Below, one piece after another: positions 649 through 19,369 of a stretch of 64,000 nucleotides of DNA. Each line of letters starts with the position of its first letter. The stretch's first letter is position 1. The position numbers and the translations under genes were made by a program. The notes below the pieces were generated by a model. It had not been told where the DNA came from, did no database searches, and was given only the letters and a program-made list of their open reading frames with translations. The DNA comes from a bacterium (lineage in GTDB: Bacteria > Armatimonadota > Zipacnadia > Zipacnadales > UBA11051): the NCBI GenBank assembly GCA_021372615.1, contig JAJFUB010000018.1, positions 8,193 to 72,192 on the forward strand, read 5' to 3'.

Positions 649-845
649 GGGGCGGGGGTTGGGGATTGGGCATTGGGGATTGGGGACGGCGGAGGCAACG
701 GCTCGGATCTGCCTCACCCCCGGCGGCGGGGCCCGCCGCACACGTGAGACCGCAAGCGGTCTCGGCGGCACCCGCCGCCTGAGTGTTGCCCTACATGCCC
801 GGCCTTCACCAATGCCCAGTACCCAATGCCCAATCCCTAATGCCC
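649..845. repeat. G-tract spacer GGGGTTGGGGATTGGGCATTGGGGATTGGGG (649-690) and an inverted C-tract copy (812-845) flanking an intergenic region that also carries the ATCTGCCTCACCCCCGGC and GGCACCCGCCGCCTGAGTG motifs
   Basis: Four or more G-runs of 3-4 with 1-4-nt loops (canonical G-quadruplex motif) immediately after the DRTGG stop. The reverse-complement arrangement occurs 120 bp downstream. Confidence 0.6.
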
Positions 846-1706
846 AACACCTCCCTAGACCTGCATATCCATTCGGCGCTGTCACCGTGCGCTGACGAGG
901 CGATGCGGCCACCAGCGGTGCTGCTGACAGCGGAGCGGCGGGGGCTGGACGTGGTGGGGATCGTGGACCACTCAACGGGGCGGAACGGGTGGGCGTTTCT
1001 GACGGCGGCGGCGGCGTTTGAGGTGCAGGTGCTGGCGGGCCTGGAGATCGAGAGCAGTGAGGGCGTGCACCTGCTGGCGCTGTTCGATGGTCGCGAGGCG
1101 TTGGAGGATTTCGACGGGCTGGTGGCGCAACATCTGCCCGGCGGGTTGAACCGGCCGGAGGTGCTGGGGCCGCAACTACTGCTAGATGAGTGGGGCGAAG
1201 TGATCGGGGAGGAGCAGCGGCTGCTCATCACGGCGGTGGACCTGGGGCTGGAGCGGCTGGTGGCCATGATCGCCGATCATGGGGGGCTGAGCATCGCTGC
1301 TCACGTGGACCGGAATGCGAACGGGCTCCTGCCGACGCTGGGGTTCGTGCCGCCGAAGCTGCAGGTGGACCTACTGGAAGTGTCGTGGCGCATGACGCCG
1401 GCGGAGGCGCGGCGGCGGTGGCCGGAACTGGAGGCGTGGCCGCTGATCCGTAGCTCGGATGCGCATGTGCTGGAGGAGATCGGGCAGGGGAGCACGGTGG
1501 TGGAGGGGGGAGGCAAAGGCGACGGCTCCTCACCCCTACCCCTCTCCCTCGCGCGCGGTGAGGCTGCGCGCTCCGGAGAGGGGAACGGCAACGGCAAAGG
1601 CAACGGCAGCGACAACGGCTTGCCGGCTGGAAGCCGGCGCTCCTACGGCCTGCGGCAGTGGGTAGGGGAACTGGCGGAGGCGGTGCGGGTGAGCGAGGAT
1701 GCGTGA
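840..1706 (+). CDS. PHP (polymerase/histidinol-phosphatase) domain protein. The C-terminal region carries an in-frame palindromic repeat insertion.
   Basis: N-terminal LDLHIHSALSPCAD, VGIVDHST and later AAHVDRN motifs typical of PHP metal sites. The six-frame ORF starts at 783 but an internal Met at 840 precedes the PHP motif. The ORF runs through repeat element 1528-1650. Confidence 0.6.
   Translation: MPNTSLDLHIHSALSPCADEAMRPPAVLLTAERRGLDVVGIVDHSTGRNGWAFLTAAAAFEVQVLAGLEIESSEGVHLLALFDGREALEDFDGLVAQHLPGGLNRPEVLGPQLLLDEWGEVIGEEQRLLITAVDLGLERLVAMIADHGGLSIAAHVDRNANGLLPTLGFVPPKLQVDLLEVSWRMTPAEARRRWPELEAWPLIRSSDAHVLEEIGQGSTVVEGGGKGDGSSPLPLSLARGEAARSGEGNGNGKGNGSDNGLPAGSRRSYGLRQWVGELAEAVRVSEDA
1528..1650. 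repeat. family-1 palindromic element (CCTCACCCCTACCCCTCTCCCTCGC...GCTCCGGAGAGGGGAACGGCAACGGC) plus family-2 element (GCCGGCTGGAAGCCGGCGCTCCTACGG), lying inside the PHP ORF
   Basis: Near-identical copies at 10560-10650, 11440-11500, 20090-20150, 27860-27900 and 27990-28050. Family-2 copies at 34875-34905, 53600-53650, 30775-30810 and 56672-56700. Confidence 0.8.
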
Positions 1707-2426: not shown

Positions 2427-2801
2427 GTGAAAACGCGTCAAGACCTGCAGGCTCTGCGTGAGAAAGCCAGAGCGGCCCTGGCTGTCCGAGACAGCCAGGG
2501 CGGGGCACGGGTGGTTATCGCCATGGGCACGTGCGGGATCGGGGCCGGGGCCCGAGAGGTGCTGGGAGCGCTGCTGGACGAGCTGTCCTTGCGGGGCCTG
2601 AGCGAGGTGACGGTGTCCCAGACAGGCTGCAAGGGGCTGTGCGACCAGGAGCCGCTGGTGGAGGTGCACATGCCGGGGATGCCGTCGGTGAGCTACGGGC
2701 GGGTGACGCCGCAGATCATGCGGCGGATCGTGGCCGAGCAGATCGTGAATGGTCAGGTGGTATCGGAGTATGCCATCGCGACCGGAACGGAGGCGGGTTA
2801 G
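2427..2801 (+). CDS. thioredoxin-like [2Fe-2S] ferredoxin (small hydrogenase subunit, HydD-like)
   Basis: 124 aa with a CxxxxC...CxxC pattern (GTCGIGAGA...GCKGLCDQEP) as in the NuoE C-terminal/2Fe-2S Trx-like fold. GTG start with GGAAGGAGG RBS at 2411-2419. Confidence 0.7.
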   Translation: MKTRQDLQALREKARAALAVRDSQGGARVVIAMGTCGIGAGAREVLGALLDELSLRGLSEVTVSQTGCKGLCDQEPLVEVHMPGMPSVSYGRVTPQIMRRIVAEQIVNGQVVSEYAIATGTEAG

Positions 2802-3281: not shown

Positions 3282-3332
3282 GGTGGGGGTTAGGCATTGG
3301 GGATTGGGCTTTGGGGCTTTGGGATCGGCAAT
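3282..3332. repeat. G-tract spacer (GGTGGGGGTTAGGCATTGGGGATTGGGCTTTGGGGCTTTGGG) between hydC and hydB
   Basis: Same motif family as 649-690, directly after a stop codon and before the RBS. Confidence 0.6.
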
Positions 3333-3345
3333 CAGGAGGATACAG

Positions 3346-6300
3346 ATGCCTGCGTTTAGATCACATGTGCTGGTGTGCGCCGGGGCCGGTTGCGTCTCGT
3401 CGGGGTCACAAGCCGTGGCGGACGCGCTGGAACAGGCGATTGTCGAGAGCGGCCTGAGCGGAGAGATCAAGGTCATCCGCACGGGCTGCATGGGATCGTG
3501 CGACCTGGGGCCGGTGGCCGTGGTGTATCCCGAGGGCGTCTTCTATCAGAAGCTGACGCCGGACGACTGCGCGGTGCTCGTCGAGGAGCACCTGCTGAAG
3601 GGGCGACCGGTGGAGCGGCTGATGTACATGCCGACCGAGGAGTACAAGCCGGCGCTAAGCATGGACGAGATCCCCTTCTTCTCGCTACAGCAGAAGGTCG
3701 TGCTGCGCAACTGCGGCGAGATTGACCCGGGGAACATCGAGGAATACATCGCGCGCGACGGCTACGAGGCGCTGGCCAAGGCGCTGACCGAGATGACGCC
3801 GCAGCAGGTCATCGAGGAGGTCAAGCAGTCGGGCCTGCGCGGGCGCGGGGGCGGCGGCTTCCCGACGGGGCTGAAGTGGGAGCTGACCGCCAAGAGCGCA
3901 GAGACGCCCAAGTACGTGGTGTGCAATGCGGACGAGGGCGACCCGGGCGCGTTCATGGACCGGAGCGTGCTGGAGGGCGACCCGCACAGCGTCATCGAGG
4001 CGATGACCATCGCGGGCTACGCCATCGGGGCGAACAAGGGCTATGTGTACGTGCGGGCGGAGTACCCGCTGGCCATCGCGCGGCTGGGCATGGCGCTGGA
4101 ACAGGCGCGGCAGTTGGGCCTGCTGGGGCAGAACGTCTTCGGGTCGGAGCACAGCTTCGACATCGAGATGCGCATGGGCGCCGGGGCGTTCGTGTGCGGC
4201 GAGGAGACGGCGCTGATGGCCTCCATCGAGGGCCGGCGCGGCGAGCCGCGGCCCCGTCCCCCCTTCCCCGCCCAGAAGGGCCTCTACAACAAGCCCACGC
4301 TGCTCAACAACGTGGAGACGTACGCGAACATCGCGCCGATCATCCTCCACGGCGGGCAGTGGCTGGCGAGCATCGGCACCGAGAAGAGCAAGGGGACGAA
4401 GGTGTTCGCGCTGGCCGGGCATGTGAACAACACGGGCCTGGTGGAGGTGCCCATGGGCACGCCGCTGGGCACGATCATCTACGAGATCGGCGGCGGCATC
4501 CGCAACGGGCGGAAGTTCAAGGCGGCGCAGTCGGGCGGGCCGTCGGGCGGGTGCATCCCCAAGGAGCACCTGAACACGCCGGTGGATTACGAGAGCCTCA
4601 AGGAGCTGGGCTCGATCATGGGCTCCGGCGGCCTGATCGTGATGGATGACACGACGTGCATGGTGGACCTGGCGCGGTTCTTCCTGGAGTTCGTGCAGGA
4701 CGAATCGTGCGGCAAGTGCCCGCCGTGCCGCATCGGGACCAAGCGGATGCTGGAGATTCTCGAGCGCATCTGCGCCGGGCAGGGGCGGGAAGGCGACATC
4801 GAGCTGCTCATCGAGCTGGGCGAGCAGATCAAGCTGACCAGCCTGTGCGGCCTGGGGCAGACAGCGCCGAACCCGGTGCTGAGCACCATCCGGTACTTCC
4901 GCGATGAGTATGAGGAGCACATCCGCGACAAGCACTGCCGCGCGGGAGTGTGCACCGAGATGATGAAGGCGCCGTGCGAACACGCCTGCCCGGCCGGGGT
5001 GGATGTGCCGGCGTACGTGGCGCTGATCGCCGAGGGGCGCTTCGACGAGGCCTACGACGTGATCCGCGACACGAACCCCTTCCCGTCGGTGTGCGGGCGG
5101 GTGTGCACGGCGTACTGCGAGCTGCAGTGCCGGCGGGGGCAACTGGATGACCCGGTGGCCATCCGGCTGCTGAAGCGGGCAGCGGCGGACCACCACACGC
5201 GGCCGTGGCAGCCGCCCCTGGAGCCGCAGCGGCACCAGCGGGTGGCCATCGTGGGAGGAGGCCCGGCGGGGCTGACGGCGGCGGCGGACCTGGTGCGCAA
5301 GGGGTACGAGGTGACGGTGTTCGAGAAGGAGGCGCTGCCGGGCGGGATGATGATGCTCGGAATCCCCGAATACCGCCTGCCCCAGGATGTGCTGCAGCAG
5401 GAGATCCAGGAGATCGTGAACCTGGGCGTGGAGCTGAAGACCGGGGTGAGCTTCGGACGGGACATCACGCTGCAGAGCCTATCTGACGACGGATACGGGG
5501 CGATCCTGCTGGCGGTCGGATGCCAGGAGGGCATGCCCCTGGAGGCGCCCGGCAGCGAGGCTGAGGGCGTCATGGACGCAGTCAAGTTCCTGCGGGACGT
5601 GAACCTGCAACGCCCGCCGGCGATCGGCAAGCGGGTGGCGGTGATCGGGGGCGGAGACACGGCCATCGACTCGGCGCGGTCGGCGCTGCGGTTGGGGGCC
5701 GACGAAGTGCACCTGGTGTACCGGCGGACCGAGGAGGAGATGCCGGCCCATGCGGCCGAGATCGCCGAGGCGCGGCATGAGGGAGTGCAGTTCCACTTCC
5801 TGGCAGCGCCCAAGGAGGTCACGGTCGAGGACGGCAAGGTGGTCGGGATGGTGTGCCAGCAGATGCGGCTGGGCGACTTCGACCGCAGTGGCCGGCGGCG
5901 GCCCGAGCCCGTAGAGGGCGCGGACTTCGCGCTGGAGGTGGACACGATCATCCCGGCCATCGGCCAGAAGATCACCACCGACTGCCTGTGCGTGGAGGCG
6001 TCGCGCGGGAAGCTGTGCGCCGACCCGCGGACCCTGGTGACCAACCTGCCGCACGTGTTCGCGGCGGGCGACGCGACCGACGGGCCGATGACCGTCGTGG
6101 ACGCGATCGCGGACGGGCACAAGGCGGCCCGGGCCATCCACAGCTTCCTGTCCGGCGAGCCGCTGCCGGAGCCGAAGCGGCGAGCCAAGACGAAGGTGAT
6201 GGCCGAGGCGATGGCGGCGCTGGAGGAGGCGACGGAGGAGGAGCCCGCGGCGGAGCCGCAGCGTGTGTCGGATGCCTACCGGCGCTCAGGGTTCTGCGAG

Positions 6301-6387
6301 GTGGAGCTGGGGTACTCGATGCCGGTGGCGTGCCGAGAGGCGTCGCGGTGCCTGCACTGCGACTTCGTGATGGTGGAGGAGGAGTAG
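3346..6387 (+). CDS. hydB: NuoF-like flavoprotein subunit of [FeFe] hydrogenase (HydB/beta). It has an N-terminal Trx-like [2Fe-2S] domain and a C-terminal glutamate-synthase-small-subunit (GltD/NfnB/DPD-like) FAD/NAD(P)H domain.
   Basis: The ATG at 3346 has an AGGAGG RBS; the six-frame ORF start at 3283 lies in a G-tract spacer. NuoF motifs are present (GRGGGGFPTGLKWE, CGKCPPCRIG, SLCGLGQTAPNPV). GltD/DPD-like Fe-S helical domain (CEHACPAGVDVPAYV, CGRVCTAYCELQC). Rossmann folds VAIVGGGPAGLTAAADL and VAVIGGGDTAIDSAR. Confidence 0.85.
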   Translation: MPAFRSHVLVCAGAGCVSSGSQAVADALEQAIVESGLSGEIKVIRTGCMGSCDLGPVAVVYPEGVFYQKLTPDDCAVLVEEHLLKGRPVERLMYMPTEEYKPALSMDEIPFFSLQQKVVLRNCGEIDPGNIEEYIARDGYEALAKALTEMTPQQVIEEVKQSGLRGRGGGGFPTGLKWELTAKSAETPKYVVCNADEGDPGAFMDRSVLEGDPHSVIEAMTIAGYAIGANKGYVYVRAEYPLAIARLGMALEQARQLGLLGQNVFGSEHSFDIEMRMGAGAFVCGEETALMASIEGRRGEPRPRPPFPAQKGLYNKPTLLNNVETYANIAPIILHGGQWLASIGTEKSKGTKVFALAGHVNNTGLVEVPMGTPLGTIIYEIGGGIRNGRKFKAAQSGGPSGGCIPKEHLNTPVDYESLKELGSIMGSGGLIVMDDTTCMVDLARFFLEFVQDESCGKCPPCRIGTKRMLEILERICAGQGREGDIELLIELGEQIKLTSLCGLGQTAPNPVLSTIRYFRDEYEEHIRDKHCRAGVCTEMMKAPCEHACPAGVDVPAYVALIAEGRFDEAYDVIRDTNPFPSVCGRVCTAYCELQCRRGQLDDPVAIRLLKRAAADHHTRPWQPPLEPQRHQRVAIVGGGPAGLTAAADLVRKGYEVTVFEKEALPGGMMMLGIPEYRLPQDVLQQEIQEIVNLGVELKTGVSFGRDITLQSLSDDGYGAILLAVGCQEGMPLEAPGSEAEGVMDAVKFLRDVNLQRPPAIGKRVAVIGGGDTAIDSARSALRLGADEVHLVYRRTEEEMPAHAAEIAEARHEGVQFHFLAAPKEVTVEDGKVVGMVCQQMRLGDFDRSGRRRPEPVEGADFALEVDTIIPAIGQKITTDCLCVEASRGKLCADPRTLVTNLPHVFAAGDATDGPMTVVDAIADGHKAARAIHSFLSGEPLPEPKRRAKTKVMAEAMAALEEATEEEPAAEPQRVSDAYRRSGFCEVELGYSMPVACREASRCLHCDFVMVEEE

Positions 6388-6404: not shown

Positions 6405-6495
6405 ACGGTCGCGGTCGGTGACCGACATCTGCCTCACCCCCGGCCCCTCTCCTTCGCGCTCGATACGGCTGAGCGCTCAGGAGAGGGGGGAGCGA
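6405..6495. repeat. family-3 palindrome (GTCGCGGTCGGTGACCGAC) plus a family-1-like hairpin (CCCCTCTCCTTCGCGC...GCGCTCAGGAGAGGGG)
   Basis: Intergenic region between hydB and hydA. Shared motif ATCTGCCTCACCCCCGGC also at 706-723. Confidence 0.7.
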
Positions 6496-8345: not shown

Positions 8346-8508
8346 GGCGAGGATTGGGTGAGGGGGCGCGCTACGCGAGTGGCGCGCCCCCCTTTGTGTG
8401 TGCGGGAGCAGGAAAAGCGGATGAGGATAGCGAAAGGCTGCAATAGCAGTGAACCAGACGACCGGTCCAGTGAGGGGTACGCCCCCCACCATCCAAGGAG
8501 GAGTTGCC

Positions 8509-9180
8509 ATGAGCAGGCGTGGGTTCACACTGATTGAGTTGCTGGTGGTCATAGCTATCATCGCAATCCTGGCGTCCATCCTCTTCCCAGTGTTCGCGCG
8601 GGCGCGGGAGAAGGCGCGGCAGACGGCATGCGTGTCGAACATCAAGCAGCTCGGCATGGCGTGCGCGATGTATACTCAGGACTACGATGAACTGATGCCA
8701 ACGGAGGACTACGACATCAACAGCAACGGGGACGGCAACGAGGTAGGGATTGACGCGAGCTGGCGCGGCGTGATCATGCCGTACTGCAAGAATGCCCAAC
8801 TCTTCCAGTGCCCCAGCTACCGGCCCTCGCCCGGGACGTATGGCCTGTTCGACGGCCGCATCAATGACAAGGGGCAGGTCGGCGGCTACGCCATCAATGA
8901 CGCGCACCAGGACTCGGGCTCGCCAACCCCGCCAGAGGCCCAGGCCCTGGGCTCGGTCGAGGACGCCTCTTCGTGCATCTTCCTGGTAGAGGGCAACGGC
9001 AGCGAGGCCGAGATCATGCCGAACGCGAACGAGCATGTGACCCTCAACATTGCGTCGCTGCGGCGACACAACGACGGCGCCAACTACGCCTTCGTGGATG
9101 GTCACGCCAAGTGGCTGAAGCAGACGGTCGTGTGCAAGGCGTCCGGGGACTGCCTGCTGAGCATGGAGATCGAGCCGTAA
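8509..9180 (+). CDS. prepilin-type N-terminal cleavage/methylation domain protein, DUF1559 (H-X9-DG) family
   Basis: GFTLIELLVVIAIIAILASILFPVFARAREKARQTACVSNIKQLGMA is the classic type IV pilin-like N-terminus. C-terminal HNDGANYAFVDGH is the H-X9-DG motif. RBS AAGGAGGAG. The family is typical of Planctomycetota/PVC genomes. Confidence 0.8.
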   Translation: MSRRGFTLIELLVVIAIIAILASILFPVFARAREKARQTACVSNIKQLGMACAMYTQDYDELMPTEDYDINSNGDGNEVGIDASWRGVIMPYCKNAQLFQCPSYRPSPGTYGLFDGRINDKGQVGGYAINDAHQDSGSPTPPEAQALGSVEDASSCIFLVEGNGSEAEIMPNANEHVTLNIASLRRHNDGANYAFVDGHAKWLKQTVVCKASGDCLLSMEIEP

Positions 9181-9440: not shown

Positions 9441-9546
9441 AGGTGGAGGATTCTTTGTGAAACTTCGTTCACAAATGCTAGTTCTGGGGTTTTGCTGTAC
9501 CTGCGATTATGGAGAGACGAATCAACACACACGCCGGGGACCTGTG

Positions 9547-11313
9547 ATGGAGCATGTGGATGAAGCGCGCACCAGAGCTGAACATGGGGGGCGGCACCGG
9601 AGGGTCTATGACGAGTGGCCGGTCGGGGTGCGGAGGTTCACGCAGGAGCGGCAGTACCTGGGGCTCGGCGACGAAGTGTACCCCCGCATCCTTGATACGC
9701 TGAGCCGCATCTTCCACGGGAAGTATGAGGAAGCAGCGCTGTGCTGGGGGATTGGATCGGGGAAGTCGTTCCTGTGCTCGCTGGCGCTGCTGTACATGGT
9801 GTACCGCACGCTGTGTCTGCGGGACCCGCAGCAGTACTACGGCCTGGCCGAGGGGAGCCCGATCCATATCGTGACGGTCGGGCCCACGGCACGCGTGGCC
9901 GAGAAGGCGATCTATGGCCAGATCCGCGGCATGGTGTCGCGGTCGCCGTGGTTCGCCGACAAGTACCCGGCCGACACCCGGACACGCCGCGAACTGCACT
10001 TCCCCAAGCATGTGGAGGTGCTGCCCGGGAACTCCAGCGACCTGTTCCCGCTGGGGCTCAATGTGCTGTGTGCGACCATGGACGAGGCAGCCTTCTTCGT
10101 CGAGACCCAGAGCGGCGGGCAGGAGGCAGCCGAAGAGGTGTACCTCGCACTGCAGCGGCGCATCAAGTCGCGGTTCGGTAGCCGGGGGCTCGTGCTAATC
10201 GCGTCCTCCCCACGGCACGGCGAGGACTTCATCATGCAGAAGCTGGCCGAGGCTGAGACGAACCCGACCGTCTTCGCGTCGCGCAAGGCCACCTGGGAAG
10301 TCAAGCCCGGCTTCAGCGGAGAGACGTGCGTCGAGGGCGGCCTGGAGGTGCCTGTGGAGCTGGCCGGGGAGTTCCGGCGCAACCCGCAGAAAGCGCGCCG
10401 TGACCTGGCCGCCCAGCCCGGAGCGGCGTACCAGCCGTTCTTTGTGGACATGGGGGCGCTGGAGGCGGCGTGCGGTGGGGCGCGGGACGGCGACGGCAAC
10501 GGCGTCCCACCCCCTGCCCCCTCCGCACGGGGGAGGGGGAACGTCAACGAGAACGTCAACGTCAACGGCGACGGCGTCCTCACCCCTACCCCTCTCCCTC
10601 GCCCGCCTTCGCCCTCCGGGCTACGGCAGGCTCCGGAGAGGGGAACGGCTGACGACAACGGCGGCCTACCCCGTCAGCGCTGCGCGCTGACACCCCTCCC
10701 TGGTAGGGAGGGGAAGGGCAACGGCGTGGAGGTGCGGCATCCGTTTGCGGAGGAGGGGAGGCTGGCGGATTGGTTCCGGCCTGATGATGCGGTGCCGCGC
10801 TATGTCCATATAGACCTGGGCCTCAAGAAGGACGCCTGCGGCATGGCCATGGCCAAGGTAGTCAGCGAGGGCGGGCAGCCTGTCGCGGTGGTCGAGCTGA
10901 TGCTGCAACTAACGGCACCGGCGGGCGGTGAAGTGAACCTCGCCACGCCACGGGAAATCGTGCTCGCTCTGCGCCGGCGAGGGTTCCCCATCGGCCAGGT
11001 GAGCTACGACGGATGGCAGAGCGCCGATAGCCTGCAGATCCTGCGCCGACACGGCGTGCGCGCGGTGACCGTGTCCGTGGACCGCGACCTGGGAGCGTAT
11101 GAGACGCTCAAGGAGCTGGCCAATGACGGGCGGCTGCGCATGTACCCCTTCAAGCCGTTCCTGGAGGAGTGCCGTCGGCTCGAACTGATCCAGGGGACCA
11201 AGGTGGATCACCCGGCCCATGGGTCCAAGGATGTGGCCGACGCGGTGGCCGGGGCGGTGAGCGAGGCGGTGAAGGCCTGGGGGGGGACGGATGTGAGGGG
11301 GAGGATCGTGTGA
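9547..11313 (+). CDS. terL: phage terminase large subunit (ATPase plus RNaseH-like nuclease). The inter-domain linker carries an in-frame palindromic repeat insertion.
   Basis: Walker A GIGSGKS, Walker B/catalytic VLCATMDEAAFF, C-terminal nuclease-like domain (YVHIDLGLKKDACGMAMAKV...DGWQSADS...DHPAHGSKDVADAV). The ORF track starts at 9457 and the first ATG is at 9475. An internal Met at 9547 (MEHVDE) is preferred but the start is uncertain. Repeat segment 10486-10725 translates as a low-complexity G/N/P-rich linker. Confidence 0.8.
   Translation: MEHVDEARTRAEHGGRHRRVYDEWPVGVRRFTQERQYLGLGDEVYPRILDTLSRIFHGKYEEAALCWGIGSGKSFLCSLALLYMVYRTLCLRDPQQYYGLAEGSPIHIVTVGPTARVAEKAIYGQIRGMVSRSPWFADKYPADTRTRRELHFPKHVEVLPGNSSDLFPLGLNVLCATMDEAAFFVETQSGGQEAAEEVYLALQRRIKSRFGSRGLVLIASSPRHGEDFIMQKLAEAETNPTVFASRKATWEVKPGFSGETCVEGGLEVPVELAGEFRRNPQKARRDLAAQPGAAYQPFFVDMGALEAACGGARDGDGNGVPPPAPSARGRGNVNENVNVNGDGVLTPTPLPRPPSPSGLRQAPERGTADDNGGLPRQRCALTPLPGREGKGNGVEVRHPFAEEGRLADWFRPDDAVPRYVHIDLGLKKDACGMAMAKVVSEGGQPVAVVELMLQLTAPAGGEVNLATPREIVLALRRRGFPIGQVSYDGWQSADSLQILRRHGVRAVTVSVDRDLGAYETLKELANDGRLRMYPFKPFLEECRRLELIQGTKVDHPAHGSKDVADAVAGAVSEAVKAWGGTDVRGRIV
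10486..10725. repeat. family-1 composite element inserted inside terL
   Basis: CCACCCCCTGCCCCCTCCGCACGGGGGAGGGGG. (AACGTC/AACGGC) hexamers. CCTCACCCCTACCCCTCTCCCTCGCCCGCCTTCGCCCTCCGGGCTACGGCAGGCTCCGGAGAGGGG. CACCCCTCCCTGGTAGGGAGGGG. Confidence 0.8.
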
Positions 11314-11319
11314 AGGAGG

Positions 11320-11570
11320 AGGCCGACCCTCACCCCCGGCCGCTCTCCCAGAGGGAGAGGGGAGCAGACGGCGGGGGTTGAAACCCCCGCCTGACGGGGA
11401 GGCGTCCCTCCGGGACGCCGGGACGGCAACGGCAACGGCGTCCTCACCCCTACCCCTCTCCCTCGGCCCGCTGCGCGGGCCTCCGGAGAGGGGAACGGCA
11501 ACGACGGCCTACCCCAGCCCTGCGGGCCACCCCTCCCTGAAGGGAGGGGGGAACGGCAACGACGGTGACG
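11320..11570. repeat. family-1 composite element between terL and portal (modules A, B and C)
   Basis: GGGGGTTGAAACCCCCGCCTGACGGGGAGGCGTCCCTCCGGGACGCC (module A, two short hairpins). AACGGC hexamers. CCTCACCCCTACCCCTCTCCCTCGGCCCGCTGCGCGGGCCTCCGGAGAGGGG. CCACCCCTCCCTGAAGGGAGGGGGG. Confidence 0.8.
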
Positions 11571-11719
11571 ACGGCGGTGTACGGGCGGCTCGGAAGCGAG
11601 GCGCTCTGTTCGGTTCTGGTGGGACGATGTGATGCTCTGACGGGGTCAGCCCCCCAGAGGACCGGATGCAGCCGGTCTTCCGGGGACGGACCCCACCCCG
11701 TACAGGTGGAGGCGAGGCA

Positions 11720-13090
11720 ATGTCGGATCTCGTGAAGGCGCAGGTTGTGGGGACGGACGGCAGAGGCGTGAGCAAGCAGTTGCCCGACTCGCCCTGGCAT
11801 GAGGCCTACGCACGGGGGGAAGTGGTGGAGCCCCCGTATGATCTGGAAGCGCTGGCAGCGCTGTATGAGACGAACTCGACCCACAAGGCGTGCGTGGACG
11901 CCAAGACCATCAACATCGTGGGGCTCGGGTACCGGTTCGTGCCCGTCGGGGGCGAGCGTGAGGCCGACAGCGGCAACCTGGCGCTGCTGCAGCACCTGTT
12001 CGACAACTCCAACCCCGAGATGACCTTCACCGAGGTGCTGCGGGCCGTGTGGACCGATGTGGAGTGCCTCGGGAATGGGTACCTGGAGTTGACCCGCAAC
12101 AGCCGGGGGCAGATTGACGGGATGTACCACGTGCCCGGGACGACGGTGCGGGTGCTGGCCGACCGATCCGGGTTCGTGCAGGTGCGCGACGGGAGGAAGC
12201 GGGTCTTCCGGAATGTGGGTGGAGAGCCGGTCGCGGTCGGTGACCGCTCCCACAACAGCACACAGGACGGGGGCGACGGGGGGCGGGGGGCGACTGCCAG
12301 CCTGGCAGATCATAGCGGGCGGGGTACGAGCGCCGCCCTGGCAGACCACAGTGGGCGGGGTACAAGCCCCCGCCCTACAGGGGACGCGGGCGAACAGAAT
12401 GAGGTGCTGCACTTCATGAAGTACACGCCGCAGTCCTCGTACTACGGGGTGCCCGACATCATCCCGGCGGTGTCCGCAGTGGCCGGCGATAAGGCGGCGC
12501 GCGAGTACAACATTGACTTCTTCAGCCACAACGCAGTGCCCCGGATGGCGATCATCGTCGAAGGGGGCGAGCTGTCCGAGGGCGTGGTGACGCAACTCAA
12601 GCACTTCATGGAGAGTGAGATCAAAGGGCATGGGCACAAGACGCTGGTGCTCGAGGTGCCCGGCGGCGGCGCCAACGTGAGGCTCGAGAAGCTCACCGTC
12701 GGAGGCTGCGAGGATGCGGCGTTCCTGGAGTACCGTCGGGCCAACCGGGATGAGGTGCTGCTGGTGCACCGCGTCCCGCCCAGCAAAGTGACCGTGGTCG
12801 AGAACGCCAACCTGGCCAACAGCAATGACCAGGACAAGACCTTCCGCGAGCAAGTCGTGCGGCCGGAACAGCGGCGGATCGAGTACCGGTTGAACCGGCT
12901 GGTGCGCGAGCAGCTCGGGATCGGGGACTGGGCCTTCCAGTTCAGGGAGATGGACCTGTCCGAGGCGCGCGAGGAGGCCGAGGTGGCTGCCATCTATGCC
13001 GGGATCGGAGTGCTGAGCGCGGAGGAAATCCGGGGGCGGCTCGGGATGGTGGCGTCGCCTGTGGCCCAGGCCGTCAGCGCTGGGCGGTGA
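11720..13090 (+). CDS. phage portal protein (HK97-like family)
   Basis: Immediately downstream of terL. 457 aa with a portal-like central region (KTINIVGLGYRF, YYGVPDIIPAVSAVAGDKAAREYNIDFFSHNAVPRMAIIVEGG). GGTGGAGG RBS before the ATG at 11720. The ORF contains a family-3 palindrome and an imperfect 36-bp tandem duplication (12234-12375). Confidence 0.7.
   Translation: MSDLVKAQVVGTDGRGVSKQLPDSPWHEAYARGEVVEPPYDLEALAALYETNSTHKACVDAKTINIVGLGYRFVPVGGEREADSGNLALLQHLFDNSNPEMTFTEVLRAVWTDVECLGNGYLELTRNSRGQIDGMYHVPGTTVRVLADRSGFVQVRDGRKRVFRNVGGEPVAVGDRSHNSTQDGGDGGRGATASLADHSGRGTSAALADHSGRGTSPRPTGDAGEQNEVLHFMKYTPQSSYYGVPDIIPAVSAVAGDKAAREYNIDFFSHNAVPRMAIIVEGGELSEGVVTQLKHFMESEIKGHGHKTLVLEVPGGGANVRLEKLTVGGCEDAAFLEYRRANRDEVLLVHRVPPSKVTVVENANLANSNDQDKTFREQVVRPEQRRIEYRLNRLVREQLGIGDWAFQFREMDLSEAREEAEVAAIYAGIGVLSAEEIRGRLGMVASPVAQAVSAGR
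12234..12375. repeat. family-3 palindrome (GGTCGCGGTCGGTGACCGCTCCCACA) plus an imperfect about 36-bp tandem duplication, inside the portal ORF
   Basis: Encodes ...SLADHSGRGTSAALADHSGRGTS... Family-3 copies at 6405, 35704, 37690-37765 (two inverted copies) and 51395. Confidence 0.7.
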
Positions 13091-13300
13091 GGGGCGGGGG
13101 GCAAGGGCGGGGGTTGAAACCCCCGCCTGACGGGGAAGCGTCCCTCCGGGACGCGGACGGAGGACGGCAACGGCGGCCCACCCCCTGCCCCCTCCCCACA
13201 GGGGAGGGGGAACGGCAACGGCAACGGCAGCAACGACGACCTACCCCCTGCCCCCTCCCTACAGGGAGGGGGGACGGCAACGACAACGGCGAACGGCGGT
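13091..13300. repeat. family-1 composite element (modules A, B and C twice) between portal and protease
   Basis: GGGGGTTGAAACCCCCGCCTGACGGGGAAGCGTCCCTCCGGGACGC. CCACCCCCTGCCCCCTCCCCACAGGGGAGGGGG. CTACCCCCTGCCCCCTCCCTACAGGGAGGGGGG. Confidence 0.8.
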
Positions 13301-13324
13301 GGCGCGCAGGCGAGCTGAGAGACA

Positions 13325-13801
13325 TTGGCGGGCTTGGAAGGTGATGGAGTGGCGGACGAGACGACCGCGGCGGAGTGGCAGTTCGAGGGCGTCGCGTCCA
13401 GCACCAGGCTGGACCGGCAACGGGAGAAGATCAGTAAGGGGGCGCTGCGACAGGTAGCGCAGAGAGGGCCCGTGGACCTGGTCGCGGCGCATAACGAGCG
13501 AGAGGTTGTGGTCGGCAGAATCGAGACGTGTGAGGTCGAGGGGGAGCTGCTGCGGGTCCGCGGGCGGCTGCGCGTGGACGCGCCCGAGGCCCGGGAGCTG
13601 CGACAACGGCTCGCGCGGGGCGAGAGGCTGGGGCTCAGCCTGGGCGGCAAAGTGAGCCGGGCCCACTGGGGCTGGGACAGCAATACCGAGGGACCCGTCC
13701 GGCATCTGGATGAGGTGGCCGTCGAGCATGTGGCGGTGTGCCGAGCGGAGCAAGCCGTGAACCCGGATGTGCGAGTACGACTAGTTGAGGGTGAGCAGTG
13801 A
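13325..13801 (+). CDS. prohead protease, HK97/U35-S78 family (start uncertain)
   Basis: FEGVASSTRLDRQREKISKGAL and LVAAHNEREVVVGRIE resemble the conserved S/H blocks of HK97 gp4-type proteases. It sits between the portal and major capsid genes. Confidence 0.5.
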   Translation: MAGLEGDGVADETTAAEWQFEGVASSTRLDRQREKISKGALRQVAQRGPVDLVAAHNEREVVVGRIETCEVEGELLRVRGRLRVDAPEARELRQRLARGERLGLSLGGKVSRAHWGWDSNTEGPVRHLDEVAVEHVAVCRAEQAVNPDVRVRLVEGEQ

Positions 13802-15958: not shown

Positions 15959-18900
15959 ATGCGTAAGCAATTCCTGTATCTGGATAAGGCAGGCTTCTAC
16001 TACAACGCGCCGGGCAACATCAGCATGGGCTCGGGAGCGAAGGGGAGCGTGTTCTTCTGGTACCATCCGGCGCCGTGGAACGACGGCAACCAGCCGGTCT
16101 GGGAGGCCACGTTCGACAGCAGCAACTACCTGCGGTGTGGCTTTACGGGCAACTCGCGCTTCAGCTTCGTGAGCTGCTCGAACGGCGTATGGTACGCCGC
16201 ACACTGGAACGACTTCTTTGTGAAGGACTACCAGCGCTGGCTGCCAGTGCTGTGCACGTGGGACTTCACCACGGCCGGCGCCGGACAGCTGCGGCTGTAT
16301 CTGGACGGCCAGGAAGCGCCGACGCAGTCGAACACCGCCGAGGCGCCCCTCGGCGAGGCTCTGCGGCTGTACCTGGGGGCGCGGTCGGACACCACGGCGG
16401 TGGGACTGGACGGGTACCTGGACAACATCGCGATATGGGACGGGGTCATGACGGCGACCCAGTACGCGGCGCTGACCCGGGGCGCTGCCACGTACGCCGA
16501 GCGGCAAGCGGCGCGACGACGCCTGCCCCGACAGAGCGACGGGAATGGGACGCTGACTTTCCTGGCACCGTTCGACGGGACGTTCGCGGCGCAGATCGCC
16601 GGGGGCGACCCGCAGGCGTACTGGATGGTGGGGGCCAGCGACTACCACCACTTCGCGCGGCTGGATGACGGCTCGCGGAGCCGGGGTCGGCGGCAGATGT
16701 TCCGGTTTGGCATCCCGCGTCACGATGATTCGGATGACGACCGGGTGCCGCTGCGCGCGGTGCTGGGGCTGCTGCGCGACCAGGGCGCGTCGCAGTACAC
16801 GACGCTCGTGGACCAGGCGACGCACTCGGAGATCAACGTCAGCCAGTACAAGGCGATCTCGGGCTATGGGCAGGGCGTGGGATGGCTGCGCTCGGCCATA
16901 GACCCCGGTGACCTGCCGTACCCGACGACGGTGCGCATGCGCGTGAACCTGCCGGATGCGACGAACCCCAAGAACACGAGGATCTGCCTGGGCCCGCTGA
17001 CGTACATCAGCGGCGGGATGCACGGGAACAACTTCACGACCTGGGGCACGGGCGAGAGCTTCATGGTCGTCGCCGACGCCGGGAACACCGCGGGGACGAT
17101 CAAGACGAGCCTGAGCGCCCGGACGGATGGATACTGGGCGGCGGCCGAGATCTCCATGCAGACGGGGGCGTGCGCCGGCTGCCGGCTGAAGGTGAGCGGG
17201 TACACGGCGAGCACCGGAGTGCTGACGCTGTCGGGGACGTTGCCGGCCACGCCGGCGGCGGGCGATGTGGGCGTGGTGGACTTCCGGGGCCGGCTGGTGC
17301 CGACCGGCAATCCGTGCGATGAGACCCAGAGCATGGAGGCGTGGCTGTGGGAGGAGTATGGGGAGGACAGGCCGTGGATCGAGCTGGAGGCGGTGTACGG
17401 GGCGACCAGCGGCTTTGGGATGGCGCGCTACCAGCGGGGCCGGTCCACATGGATGAACCTGACGCGAGCGAACGGCGGCCTGCAGGGCGCGTACCTGATG
17501 ATGGGGCGGAACGCCTGGGAGACGCCGGAGAGCTTCAGCTGCAACATCCTGATCGAGAGCCTGGCCATTGACGGGCCGGGCAGCTACCAGGTGATGTCGC
17601 CGGAGACGACGCGTTCGGGGCGGGGGTTCGAGCTGGCGGACCACTTCCTGCTGCGCGACATGGGCAACGGGCATAGCTGCCGGGTGTGGCGGGCGGAGAA
17701 CTGCGGGTGGAACAGTGCGGCCCCCACCGTGAACGCCGACGCGAGCACGGCGGTCGCGGACCTGCAAGTCGCAGGGACGTGGCGGGAGGAGGCCTTCTTC
17801 CACAGCGCAGTGCGGACAGGCGAGGGGACCGACGCGGTCGTGGCGGTGGTCAGAGGTACGAGTTCTGAGGGGATTGACCGGCTGGGATACGTGCGAGGGC
17901 AGTGGAATGCGTCCACCCAGCGCATCACCTGGCAAGACGAGACACCGCCGACGGGCAAGAGCAACCCGTTCCTGGACATGAGCCTCCTGCGGCCGTGGGA
18001 AAACCGTGACTCTACCTGGGGCCTGGAGGGCGACCCCGGGCTGGCGCGGATCTTCAGCAACGCGGGGAGCGAATGGGCGCTGCTGCTGGGCGGGAACGAG
18101 GACAACCCGGATCATTACTATGTGCGGGCATATCACGGCGCTCCGGACCGCTGGAGCTTTGACCCGCAGCAGCACTGGTGGCCTGAGAACCCGGTGGTGC
18201 CGGGGTTCGGGGGCGTGGACATGATGCCGCCGAGCGGCGGTGGGGTGAACTGCTTCGGCAACCGGGACGCGGAATGGATGGTGCTGCAGAACCCGTACGC
18301 GCGGGACGCGAGCCGGCGCTTCGCGGCCTACGCCCGGTTCAAGACGATCCTGCCGCTGACGGGGATGATCGGGGGCAACCGGCGCCCGTTGGCGGGGTGG
18401 ACCAGCCCAGACCTGAAGAGCTTCTTCCTGCTGCCCCATGGCAACAGCCTGTCGCCGCTGGGGATCGGCGAGGGGTTCACGATGTGCCCCTATGCCGTGA
18501 GCGATGACGTGATCGCGATGGTGGTGCAGTTCTACGGCGGCGTGGATCGGCTGTGGGCGTCGGATGATGACCGGCACTTCCAGCAGGTGATCTACAGCTT
18601 CATGCCCGACAGCAACCCGCTGGACGTGTTCCGGCTGGGCGACAGGCGGATCTACTACTCTGCTACCTCCGGCAGCGTCTTCAACCTAGCGTACCAGGAC
18701 TACAACCGCGAGACGTTCTACCAGCTCAGCTCGGGGCAGGTAAGCGGGACCCTGGAGACAGCAGCGCTGGTCAAGCCGGCGGACGGATGGGGCGGCCTGA
18801 TCGTGAACGTCGCGCCGCAGCAGGGCGCAGTGCGGGTCGAGGTGCTGAACGCCCTGACGGACGAGGTGGTCGCGGGGTTCGGCACCGAGGACTGCGACAG

Positions 18901-19369
18901 CCTGACGGACGGCGTGGAGCGCCAGGTGACGTGGGGCACGCTGGCGCTGTCGGAGCTGACGACCGAGGCGGTGCGCCTGCGGTTCGTGCTGACGCGGAGC
19001 AGCGCCGATGATACCTCGCCGCAGCTGTTCAGTTGGCAGATCGGGGAGGCGGAGGGCATTGCGGCGCCCCAGGTCAGCAGCCTGCAGGTGGAGGGTAAGG
19101 CGAACCCCACGGGGATCCTGGACGACACGCCAACGCTGAGCTGGAGCTATGCGGATGCGCAGGGGTACGCGCAGGCCGCCTACCAGGTGCTGGTGGCATC
19201 CAGCCAGGGCAGTCTGGACCTGAACGAGGGCGACCTGTGGGATAGCGGTGTGGTGGCGGGGCCGGCGACGTCGGTGGTGTATGCCGGCACGGCGCTGGGC
19301 GATGAGGCGATGTACTTCTGGAAGGTGCGGGTGCAGAACTCCGAAGGGGTGTGGTCCGAGGAATGGTAG
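15959..19369 (+). CDS. large phage structural protein with an N-terminal LamG/concanavalin-A-like lectin domain and a C-terminal rhamnosidase-N-terminal-like (FN3-like) domain. Candidate receptor-binding or fibre protein.
   Basis: LamG pattern (RLYLDGQEAP...GYLDNIAIWDGVMTATQY). C-terminal PTLSWSYADAQGYAQAAYQVLVASSQ...YFWKVRVQNSEGVWSEEW resembles the Bac_rhamnosid_N family. GGAGGA RBS. 1136 aa. Confidence 0.55.
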   Translation: MRKQFLYLDKAGFYYNAPGNISMGSGAKGSVFFWYHPAPWNDGNQPVWEATFDSSNYLRCGFTGNSRFSFVSCSNGVWYAAHWNDFFVKDYQRWLPVLCTWDFTTAGAGQLRLYLDGQEAPTQSNTAEAPLGEALRLYLGARSDTTAVGLDGYLDNIAIWDGVMTATQYAALTRGAATYAERQAARRRLPRQSDGNGTLTFLAPFDGTFAAQIAGGDPQAYWMVGASDYHHFARLDDGSRSRGRRQMFRFGIPRHDDSDDDRVPLRAVLGLLRDQGASQYTTLVDQATHSEINVSQYKAISGYGQGVGWLRSAIDPGDLPYPTTVRMRVNLPDATNPKNTRICLGPLTYISGGMHGNNFTTWGTGESFMVVADAGNTAGTIKTSLSARTDGYWAAAEISMQTGACAGCRLKVSGYTASTGVLTLSGTLPATPAAGDVGVVDFRGRLVPTGNPCDETQSMEAWLWEEYGEDRPWIELEAVYGATSGFGMARYQRGRSTWMNLTRANGGLQGAYLMMGRNAWETPESFSCNILIESLAIDGPGSYQVMSPETTRSGRGFELADHFLLRDMGNGHSCRVWRAENCGWNSAAPTVNADASTAVADLQVAGTWREEAFFHSAVRTGEGTDAVVAVVRGTSSEGIDRLGYVRGQWNASTQRITWQDETPPTGKSNPFLDMSLLRPWENRDSTWGLEGDPGLARIFSNAGSEWALLLGGNEDNPDHYYVRAYHGAPDRWSFDPQQHWWPENPVVPGFGGVDMMPPSGGGVNCFGNRDAEWMVLQNPYARDASRRFAAYARFKTILPLTGMIGGNRRPLAGWTSPDLKSFFLLPHGNSLSPLGIGEGFTMCPYAVSDDVIAMVVQFYGGVDRLWASDDDRHFQQVIYSFMPDSNPLDVFRLGDRRIYYSATSGSVFNLAYQDYNRETFYQLSSGQVSGTLETAALVKPADGWGGLIVNVAPQQGAVRVEVLNALTDEVVAGFGTEDCDSLTDGVERQVTWGTLALSELTTEAVRLRFVLTRSSADDTSPQLFSWQIGEAEGIAAPQVSSLQVEGKANPTGILDDTPTLSWSYADAQGYAQAAYQVLVASSQGSLDLNEGDLWDSGVVAGPATSVVYAGTALGDEAMYFWKVRVQNSEGVWSEEW

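Follow-up and report, generated by a model that had tools for sequence, protein, structure and literature searches.

The 64,000-nucleotide stretch of DNA analyzed in this work (hereafter the window; contig JAJFUB010000018.1 of assembly GCA_021372615.1, from a bacterium of the Armatimonadota) carries on its forward strand, at positions 3346-6387, a gene whose product joins a HydB subunit to a GltD-like module. The gene sits in the hydC-hydB-hydA operon of a three-subunit [FeFe] hydrogenase; the coordinates of the operon genes and of the domains of the fusion protein are collected in Table 1. It consists of a single uninterrupted open reading frame (ORF) that begins with ATG 3346 and ends with the stop codon at 6387. 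Because this ATG is preceded by AGGAGG at 3334-3339 and the homologues begin at the equivalent residue, a product of 1013 residues is adopted; the alternative GTG at 3283 has no comparable site in front of it.

In the fusion protein Pfam recognizes, in this order, 2Fe-2S_thioredx (residues 5-81), Complex1_51K (159-330, 8e-47), SLBB (354-402), NADH_4Fe-4S (441-525, 2e-37), Fer4_20 (531-618, 3e-23) and Pyr_redox_2 (632-924, 2e-36). Among the NCBIfam models, nuoF_fam (TIGR01959) covers residues 127-526, and the GltD-like PRK12771 and PRK12814 cover 498-1007. No Fer4-type ferredoxin domain is matched by Pfam anywhere in the protein, and the motif scan finds in it no CxxCxxCxxxCP motif of the B3/B4 ferredoxin type. 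Residues 1-540 are assigned on this evidence to a bifurcating-type HydB/BfuB core, and residues 541-1013 to a complete GltD-like module with two [4Fe-4S] clusters, flavin adenine dinucleotide (FAD) and NADPH. The initial annotation, made from the bare sequence, had described the same anatomy, namely a 1013-residue protein with a thioredoxin-like domain, a NuoF core and a GltD-type module in place of the usual 2x[4Fe-4S] tail. Pfam, NCBIfam and the alignments bear it out, the matches to Fer4_20, Pyr_redox_2, PRK12771 and PRK12814 agree on the GltD-like character of the C-terminal region, and the proposed hydrogenase context is provided by the flanking hydC and hydA. The single-chain AlphaFold2 (AF2) model has a mean predicted local distance difference test score (pLDDT) of 78.7, with values of about 85-97 in the module half. 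In Foldseek searches with this model the first half matches HydB chains and the second half matches NfnA, StnC and NfnL; since the query-normalised template modeling score (TM-score) never exceeds 0.45, no solved chain spans both halves.

A search against the chains of solved structures aligns the bifurcating HydB/BfuB chains with residues 4-542 only. The HydB of A. woodii (7q4v_B) scores 833 bits against this core, which is matched as well by NiFe-HydB, StnB, NfnB and the HydB subunits of T. kivui and T. maritima. The homology extends through the segment EYEEHIRDKHCRAGVC, each residue of which has its counterpart in EYEAHIRDKKCPAGVC of A. woodii HydB, StnB, NfnB and T. kivui HydB, and goes no further; the GltD-like module starts seven residues later. 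In the Bfu enzymes this His/Cys site, B2, which is usually occupied by Zn, acts as the hinge bearing the ferredoxin-like domain with clusters B3 and B4 (PMC12018979). Conservation was assessed in an alignment of 21 fusion proteins sharing 60-84% identity, in which the four cysteines of cluster B5, the four of cluster B1 and all hinge ligands (C438, H525, C531 and C536) are invariant.

The residues that separate bifurcating from non-bifurcating NuoF-type subunits have been defined by Losey et al. 2020 (PMC7311640). The bifurcating set comprises A..M in GAFMD, F in GAGAFVCGEE and the motif GGPSG, whereas the non-bifurcating subunits carry T/S and K/S/A in the NADH loop, a Tyr near the flavin mononucleotide (FMN) and no GGPSG. 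The motif scan recovers the complete bifurcating set, GAFMD, GAGAFVCGEE and GGPSG, in the fusion protein. A natural control is offered by two of the related loci (L081 and L086), where a short HydB is encoded a few kb from the fusion gene: reading of both sequences shows GTFKD, GAGAYVCGE and no GGPSG in the short HydB, and the bifurcating set in the fusion HydB of the same locus. The fusions have thus retained the specialized Bfu core and lost only B3/B4. Preservation of this core across about 40% sequence divergence speaks for a Bfu machinery in continued use.

The module gives its best PDB matches, over residues 541-1006, with 9bov_A (NfnA, residues 101-567, 408 bits), 9n5u_A (371 bits) and 8oh5_C (StnC, residues 101-566, 348 bits); lower matches are obtained with NfnB (323 bits), NfnL (301 bits) and GltD (236 bits). 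The root-mean-square deviations returned by Foldseek for this region are 3.2-3.3 Å to 9bov_A and 8oh5_C, and 1.7 Å to 5jca_L. With regard to the two Rossmann GxGxxG motifs reported in the initial annotation, the first, GGGPAG at residue 637, is of this form, while the second, GGGDTA at residue 768, reads GxGxxA. The glycine motifs of both the FAD and the NADPH site are invariant in the 21 fusion proteins, as are the NADPH-type YRR (792-794), the six cysteines of the helical domain, K610, R677, R1001, C1002 and C1005. R677 aligns with R239 of StnC and R201 of NfnB. The idea of a second nucleotide site, of the NADP(H) type and connected to the hydrogenase, as first suggested, is thus supported as far as sequence can tell, with both sites and their ligands preserved. 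Full conservation of the FMN/NADH site makes it unlikely that H2 is coupled to NADPH in place of NADH, which had been suggested as well.

Two features define the type of module. The first is the C-terminal segment FCEVELGYSMPVACREASRCLHC, formed by the last 30 residues, which phmmer aligns with residues 12-43 of NfnB, 17-46 of NfnL and the end of the module in NfnA and StnC (540-567). Since a segment that is N-terminal in NfnB/NfnL closes the module here, as it does the insert of NfnA/StnC, the module is circularly permuted with respect to NfnB and GltD and has this permutation in common with the Stn/NfnABC type. The second is K610, which aligns with K170 of StnC. This position supplies a ligand of the proximal cluster in StnC and is occupied by Glu in the bifurcating NfnB, and the FAD of StnC has been shown to be non-bifurcating (PMC10482914). 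A Lys at the K170-equivalent position together with a C-terminal CxxC is found in all 31 fusion and Stn-type modules covering these positions; Glu without the C-terminal CxxC is found in all four stand-alone NfnL-type proteins. The module is therefore classified, from these sequence features, as the permuted, Lys-ligated type of the Stn/NfnABC A subunit and not as the Glu-ligated bifurcating NfnB type, which is disfavored by both the Lys/Glu position and the permutation. Accordingly, the label "NfnAB-like" given in the initial annotation is less apt, and the operon contains no NfnA/NfnS partner gene. A true glutamate synthase GltD was likewise rejected, with scores of 212 against a cut-off of 448 for TIGR01317 and 290 against 483 for TIGR01318, and an operon devoid of a GltB-like gene.

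In a set of proteins of 400-650 residues (P0221, P0233, P0257, P0258 and similar), the junction segment, which runs from the end of the NuoF helix bundle over the hinge into the beginning of the module, appears at about residue 70; likewise, the PRK12771 model aligns from residue 498 of the fusion protein. These may be split or truncated forms whose module keeps the hinge, or fragments.

The fusion is widespread. Among 5.8 billion proteins searched, more than 120 clusters of 1008-1024 residues and 60-97% identity were found, on independent contigs classified as Armatimonadota, WS1, Bacillota, Moorellales, Peptococcaceae and Syntrophobacterales. Continuous fusion ORFs are also present in species-representative genomes of Armatimonadia (best 89%), WS1, Spirochaetales/Sphaerochaetaceae, Victivallales, Thermoguttaceae and Chloroflexota. 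From these matches, the window most likely derives from a bacterium of the Armatimonadia. With a 181-residue probe centered on the junction, 171 representatives (50% clusters) were retrieved at E<=1e-30; of the first 150, about 130 extend across the junction, as read from the listed match ranges. The junction itself falls inside a conserved motif, and invariant residues flank it to the left and right. The recurrence of the same continuous ORF in so many independent clusters and phyla refutes a chimeric assembly or a read-through of two adjacent genes, which answers the concern about an assembly join raised with the initial annotation. Four apparent full-length matches (L061, L071, L074 and L076) proved to be StnABC-type loci, where the following gene encodes the module, and are not fusions. 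Rough neighbor-joining (NJ) trees place the fusions at several positions in the NuoF half and nest the Stn-type modules among the fusion modules. This hints at more than one fusion or swap event and at repeated domain shuffling, the trees being too rough to count events.

Table 1. Genes, domains and sites of the fusion-type hyd operon (positions in the window)
Feature	Position	Strand	Evidence
PHP-domain protein, first gene of the cluster	783..1706	+	Pfam PHP, PHP_C
Histidine-kinase-like ATPase, HATPase_c only, 181 residues	1699..2244	+	Pfam HATPase_c, 1e-16
Small thioredoxin-like protein, 124 residues, three Cys (MGTCGIGAGA...TGCKGLC)	2427..2801	+	Weak similarity to the HydB N-terminal domain
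HydC/BfuC (NuoE-like), [2Fe-2S] cluster C1	2802..3281	+	2Fe-2S_thioredx, 2e-48 over residues 15-158; CQGTAC, CVGAC
HydB-GltD fusion protein, 1013 residues	3346..6387	+	Pfam, NCBIfam, structure-chain matches, alignment, AF2 model
N-terminal thioredoxin-like [2Fe-2S] domain, cluster B5 (C11, C16, C48, C52)	3346..3600	+	Pfam, residues 5-81; Cys invariant
NuoF core: FMN/NAD(H) site, SLBB, [4Fe-4S] cluster B1 (C455, C458, C461, C501)	3724..4923	+	TIGR01959, motifs, invariance
B2 "Zn hinge" H525-x5-C531-x4-C536 with upstream C438; fusion junction	4918..4953	+	Alignment, invariance
Helical 2x[4Fe-4S] domain (C544, C548, C583, C587, C591, C595; K610 just downstream)	4966..5199	+	Fer4_20, residues 531-618; aligns with NfnA 101-175 and StnC
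FAD domain (GGGPAG 637) and NADP(H) domain (GGGDTA 768, YRR 792-794)	5239..6153	+	Pyr_redox_2, residues 632-924; AF2; Foldseek
C-terminal segment supplying C1002 and C1005 to the module clusters	6271..6363	+	phmmer alignment, invariance
HydA, [FeFe]-hydrogenase catalytic subunit, M3 type, 578 residues	6568..8304	+	Fe_hyd_lg_C, 3e-99; Fe_hyd_SSU, Fer2_4, NADH-G_4Fe-4S_3
Terminator-like hairpin, 13 bp, 11 G-C	8362..8391	+	Consensus scan only

The catalytic subunit encoded downstream of the fusion scores 896 bits against NF040763, the model for the trimeric-type HydA (cut-off 765), and is above the cut-off of TIGR02512 as well. Its H-cluster motifs TSCSPGW, MPCVAK and MCCPGGC match those of A. 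woodii HydA1 (7q4v_A), with L1 (TSCSPGW) and L3 (MCCPGGC) falling in residues 297-303 and 495-509, respectively. A defective H-cluster site was considered on account of TSCSPGW replacing the textbook TSCCP and was dropped: the motif is common to the characterized A. woodii HydA1 and most trimeric HydAs of the fetched loci, in which L3 varies between MCC, MAC and MTC, so that TSCSPGW is no anomaly. On its motifs, HydA looks catalytically competent.

The PHP gene, which also precedes hydC/hydB in L001, L002, L005, L006 and canonical Oscillospiraceae operons, belongs to the regulatory or accessory genes typical of hyd operons under HydS control, and the HATPase gene is kept upstream at fusion-type and canonical loci. 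The 124-residue protein has GGAGG ahead of its GTG start and three of the four usual [2Fe-2S] cysteines; Pfam gives no match for it. Its gene accompanies hydC/hydB in about 50 related operons, whether canonical or fusion-type, so that the protein is a candidate for a fourth, HydD-like subunit or for an assembly factor. The hairpin that follows hydA likely marks the operon end. The hydB-hydA spacer measures 180 nt and contains a G+C-rich inverted repeat at 6444-6488 (CCCCTCTCCT ... AGGAGAGGGG, with additional base pairs within the loop); the corresponding spacer of L001, the closest relative, is only about 65 nt long.

Directly downstream of the operon lie phage genes on the forward strand (9457-13801), encoding a terminase large subunit (9457-11313), a portal protein (11666-13090, Pfam 2e-40) and a head maturation protease (13325-13801), and the region looks like a prophage or a remnant of one. 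The related Armatimonadia loci L002, L004 and L006 have a second, HydS-like hydrogenase gene after hydA instead of the phage genes. An ORF at 8449-9180 (+) has a pilin-like N-terminus (PHROG matches to residues 21-78), and 15959-19369 (+) encodes a 1136-residue protein with Laminin_G_3 and Rha78A-type Ig domains. The G+C content of the window is 68.5%; many of its other large ORFs lack a Pfam match, some of them being perhaps calls on the wrong strand, and Pfam was mostly uninformative for ten large ORFs elsewhere in the window.

Across the loci examined, the partner of the fusion protein is HydA or, in some cases, a formate-dehydrogenase-type A subunit. The gene order hydC-hydB-hydA recurs in L001-L009 and L013, and a full [FeFe] HydA comes after the fusion gene at the loci of Armatimonadia, WS1 and Spirochaetales, as well as in several genomes from Bacillota and elsewhere. 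In L049 (7734-13842), where the fusion gene appears frameshifted, the partner is a molybdopterin formate-dehydrogenase-type A subunit, and the same probably applies to L011 and L014. In L059 (7968-17377), a fusion-type BC pair is followed by a canonical HydC/HydB pair and an FdhA-like gene, so that two BC cores may serve one enzyme; the canonical HydB2 of this locus holds two CxxCxxCxxxCP-type motifs, unlike the fusion protein of the window.

Tandem trimers, made up of a fusion-type set and a second hydC-hydB-hydA, occur in L081 (1-19069), L086 (2900-15800) and L087 (4700-15700), which belong to a 5.5-Mb genome and two metagenome-assembled genomes (MAGs) of Bacillota. The short HydB of the second trimer has 526 residues in L081 and 540 in L086, and is not called in L087. 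In L081 the fusion-type hydrogenase is followed by an FdhA spread over two gene calls, perhaps through a selenocysteine codon, and by a formate transporter. Genes for HydS-like sensor, PHP, HATPase, DRTGG or SpoIIE proteins are found near these tandem trimers. In L016 (1894-9752), from an Oscillospiraceae MAG, canonical HydABC is encoded on one strand and HydC with a fusion-type HydB divergently from it, so that one genome carries both HydB types side by side; this fusion-type HydB ends with the contig, 48 residues into the module. The Stn-type assignment of the module, the bifurcating core set against the non-bifurcating short paralogues, and the formate dehydrogenase partners are points that go beyond the initial annotation.

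From the architecture, cofactor ligands, module type, operon and distribution read in these sequences, an electron route, a stoichiometry and an independence of ferredoxin can be proposed. In the model of the Bfu enzymes, mid-potential electrons reach FMN/B1/C1, NAD+ is reduced at the FMN, and low-potential electrons pass from C1 through B3/B4 to ferredoxin (PMC12018979). In the fusion, the B3/B4 domain of HydB has been swapped exactly at the Zn hinge for the GltD-like module of about 470 residues, with its two [4Fe-4S] clusters, FAD and NADP(H) site. H2 would be oxidized at the H-cluster of HydA, and the electrons would pass along the clusters of this subunit to the FMN/B1/C1 flavobicluster, which is formed by HydB and HydC and would bifurcate them as in other Bfu enzymes. 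The high-potential branch would reduce NAD+ at the FMN; the low-potential branch would probably run via C1 to the two [4Fe-4S] clusters of the module and on to the FAD, which would collect two electrons and reduce NADP+. The net reaction would be 2 H2 + NAD+ + NADP+ <-> NADH + NADPH + 2 H+, reversible and ferredoxin-independent. A low-potential branch ending in NADP+ is the simplest reading because B3/B4 is replaced by clusters that lead to an FAD with an NADPH-type site, in a module whose FAD does not bifurcate in StnC. Bifurcation that stays at FMN/B1/C1, with a low-potential branch ending at FAD/NADP+ and not at ferredoxin, is thus our preferred interpretation, held tentatively and a little short of even confidence. 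Slightly more tentative is the general proposal that a Bfu flavobicluster may use a pyridine nucleotide as its low-potential acceptor, giving a ferredoxin-independent bifurcating or confurcating hydrogenase or, with the FdhA partners, formate dehydrogenase.

The energetics can be estimated from cellular potentials. NADPH lies near -370 mV in the cell, as reported together with low-H2 potentials (PMC6288185), and NADH near -280 mV (PMC9304861). On these values, a Nernst calculation gives a mean of about -325 mV for the NADH/NADPH pair, corresponding to roughly 100 Pa H2, and an H2 pressure of a few Pa for NADH alone; the NADH-only enzyme of S. aciditrophicus was measured at 2.2-40 Pa H2. About 100 Pa would lie between the H2 level for NADH alone and that for NADH plus ferredoxin.

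Several considerations weigh against a low-potential branch that ends in NADP+. The confidence of the AF2 model is only moderate in the NuoF half. The NfnSL subunit homologous to the module receives ferredoxin close to its distal cluster, so that the module, too, may bind ferredoxin. Being about eight times larger than the B3/B4 domain, the module may not lend itself to the swinging-domain mechanism. The energetic logic, in turn, hinges on cellular ratios, since the standard potentials of NAD+ and NADP+ are equal. Finally, ferredoxin has been guessed as the acceptor at the GltA-like domain of an archaeal HydB (PMC11216029). Full-text literature searches returned no biochemical or structural study, and no assay, of the NuoF/HydB-GltD architecture; the published mentions found are one explicit (PMC11216029) and the HydDB classification rule (PMC5037454).

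The part of ferredoxin is central to a first alternative, according to which the enzyme is a hydrogenase with a built-in Stn-like transhydrogenase. Ferredoxin would dock on the module clusters, which would stand in for B3/B4, the FAD/NADP(H) site would be an additional port on the low-potential branch, and H2, NAD(H), NADP(H) and ferredoxin would all be interconverted. The module clusters are homologous to those of NfnSL, as the PDB matches indicate, and the NfnSL clusters are thought to hand electrons to ferredoxin. The proposal made for the archaeal HydB (PMC11216029) points in the same direction, and the alternative agrees with the transhydrogenase activity imagined in the initial annotation. 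However, the Stn/NfnABC module docks onto the remainder of its enzyme via the distal-cluster face and has a non-bifurcating FAD, a branch ending in FAD/NADP+ offers no obvious reason to release electrons to ferredoxin, and no ferredoxin gene is present in the operon according to the ORF list and Pfam. Taking these points together, we regard this arrangement as unlikely.

The enzyme could also be a non-bifurcating hydrogenase using either nucleotide, with the module as a second, independent entry or exit and no energetic coupling between the two. Loss of B3/B4 is one hallmark of the non-bifurcating homologues. NAD(P)H-linked non-bifurcating [FeFe] hydrogenases do exist in S. wolfei and S. aciditrophicus (PMC7311640), and HydDB includes the concept of GltD-linked hydrogenases. 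The core nevertheless keeps all the bifurcating signatures, the B5 domain and the Zn hinge, whereas the true non-bifurcating paralogues at the same loci have lost them, which leaves this explanation improbable too. Much less probable is an NfnAB-like bifurcation at the FAD of the module, a second bifurcation site at which NADPH electrons would be split between the [4Fe-4S] pair and another acceptor: although the fold and the FAD-site residues, R677 included, are common with NfnB/NfnL, the distinguishing ligand is the Stn-type Lys and not Glu in all fusions examined, the operon has no [2Fe-2S]/FAD partner of NfnA/NfnS type, and the same module type was shown not to bifurcate in StnC (PMC10482914).

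A low-potential branch ending in NADP+ would matter for the family as a whole. The characterized HydABC/Bfu members all use ferredoxin as the low-potential partner through B3/B4, and the variant puts an NADPH port in that place, in a design found in many anaerobic lineages and paired with both hydrogenases and formate dehydrogenases. If the reading is correct, it represents a new reaction type for flavin-based electron bifurcation. It would change models of H2 thresholds and NADPH supply in fermenters and syntrophs, allow an H2-linked setting of the NADH/NADPH balance and, in reverse, the formation of H2 from NADH and NADPH, for which no biochemical description was found. It would also provide a natural domain swap for structural tests of how the low-potential branch is gated in Bfu enzymes.

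Among the known systems, the HydABC hydrogenases of A. woodii, T. kivui and T. maritima (7q4v, 8a6t and 7p5h; Bfu type 1) share with the window the hydC-hydB-hydA operon and a core with the FMN/NADH site, B1, B5, the Zn hinge and the bifurcating signatures, and the HydA of the window is closest to A. woodii HydA1, TSCSPGW included. They differ in the C-terminal ferredoxin-like B3/B4 exit, which is absent from the window protein and replaced by the 2x[4Fe-4S]/FAD/NADP(H) module. Stn/NfnABC (S. ovata StnABC, 8oh5; C. saccharolyticus NfnABC, 9bov; T. sibiricus, 9n5u) has in common with it a BC-type core and the permuted module, with RCLxC at its end (RCLHC in the window), Lys at the proximal cluster and YRR. 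In Stn/NfnABC, however, the A subunit contains the module as an insert behind its N-terminal [2Fe-2S] domain, and the mid-potential chain is what the module supplies; this A subunit is without an H-cluster, and B keeps B3/B4 and reduces ferredoxin. In the window the module is on B in the place of B3/B4 and A is a complete H-cluster hydrogenase, so the enzyme is not an Stn/NfnABC. The fusion modules also keep Cys583, where four Stn-type loci have Ile or Val.

NfnAB/NfnSL (T. maritima, 4ylf; P. furiosus, 5jca) shares the fold of the large subunit, the FAD, the NADPH site and the two [4Fe-4S] clusters. NfnB/NfnL, by contrast, has its CxxC at the N-terminus and Glu as proximal ligand, and needs the NfnA/NfnS partner; the window protein has a C-terminal CxxC and Lys, and Pfam finds no PyrK-like FAD/[2Fe-2S] partner among the operon genes. 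The non-bifurcating NADH-dependent hydrogenases (S. wolfei Hyd1ABC and S. aciditrophicus HydAB) are trimers or dimers, likewise NuoF-type and without B3/B4, but their HydB has T..K, Y and no GGPSG, in place of the A..M, F, GGPSG, B5 domain and hinge of the window protein. A further likeness by description is the archaeal group F hybrid [FeFe]/[NiFe] hydrogenase, whose NuoF-like HydB carries a "glutamate synthase (GltA) domain", was modeled on 7e5z_B and 7mfm_I, and has its GltA-like domain proposed as the low-potential acceptor site (PMC11216029); that enzyme is encoded by five genes, among them one for a HydA-HyhS fusion and one for a NiFe large subunit.

The class rules place the fusion between existing categories. 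HydDB assigns a hydrogenase to A2 if the neighboring product has GltA/GltD but not NuoF, and to A3 if it has NuoF (PMC5037454). In A2, the "glutamate synthase-linked" class, the GltD-like protein is a separate subunit without NuoF, and the association of a GltD-like NAD(P)H module with HydA is common to both. In the window a group A HydA stands next to a product containing NuoF as well, with hydB upstream of hydA where the tool assumes downstream; since HydDB sends NuoF-containing neighbors to A3, the enzyme would be filed there and not under A2. The wording of the rule suggests that such neighbors may have been met in 2016 and filed as A3. With regard to BfuB, the definition of Schut et al. 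2022 requires a C-terminal 4Fe-4S ferredoxin-type domain (IPR017896) (PMC9304861). The window protein has the NuoF FMN/NAD(H) site, SLBB, B1, the B2 hinge and the B5 site, with hydC and hydA co-encoded; because the ferredoxin-type domain with B3/B4 is absent, it is a variant and not a canonical BfuB member. A Bfu survey that used the ferredoxin-type domain definition presumably missed the fusion proteins. Judged by its architecture and spread, the fusion is a large, catalogued, biochemically uncharacterized variant of the HydABC/Bfu family.

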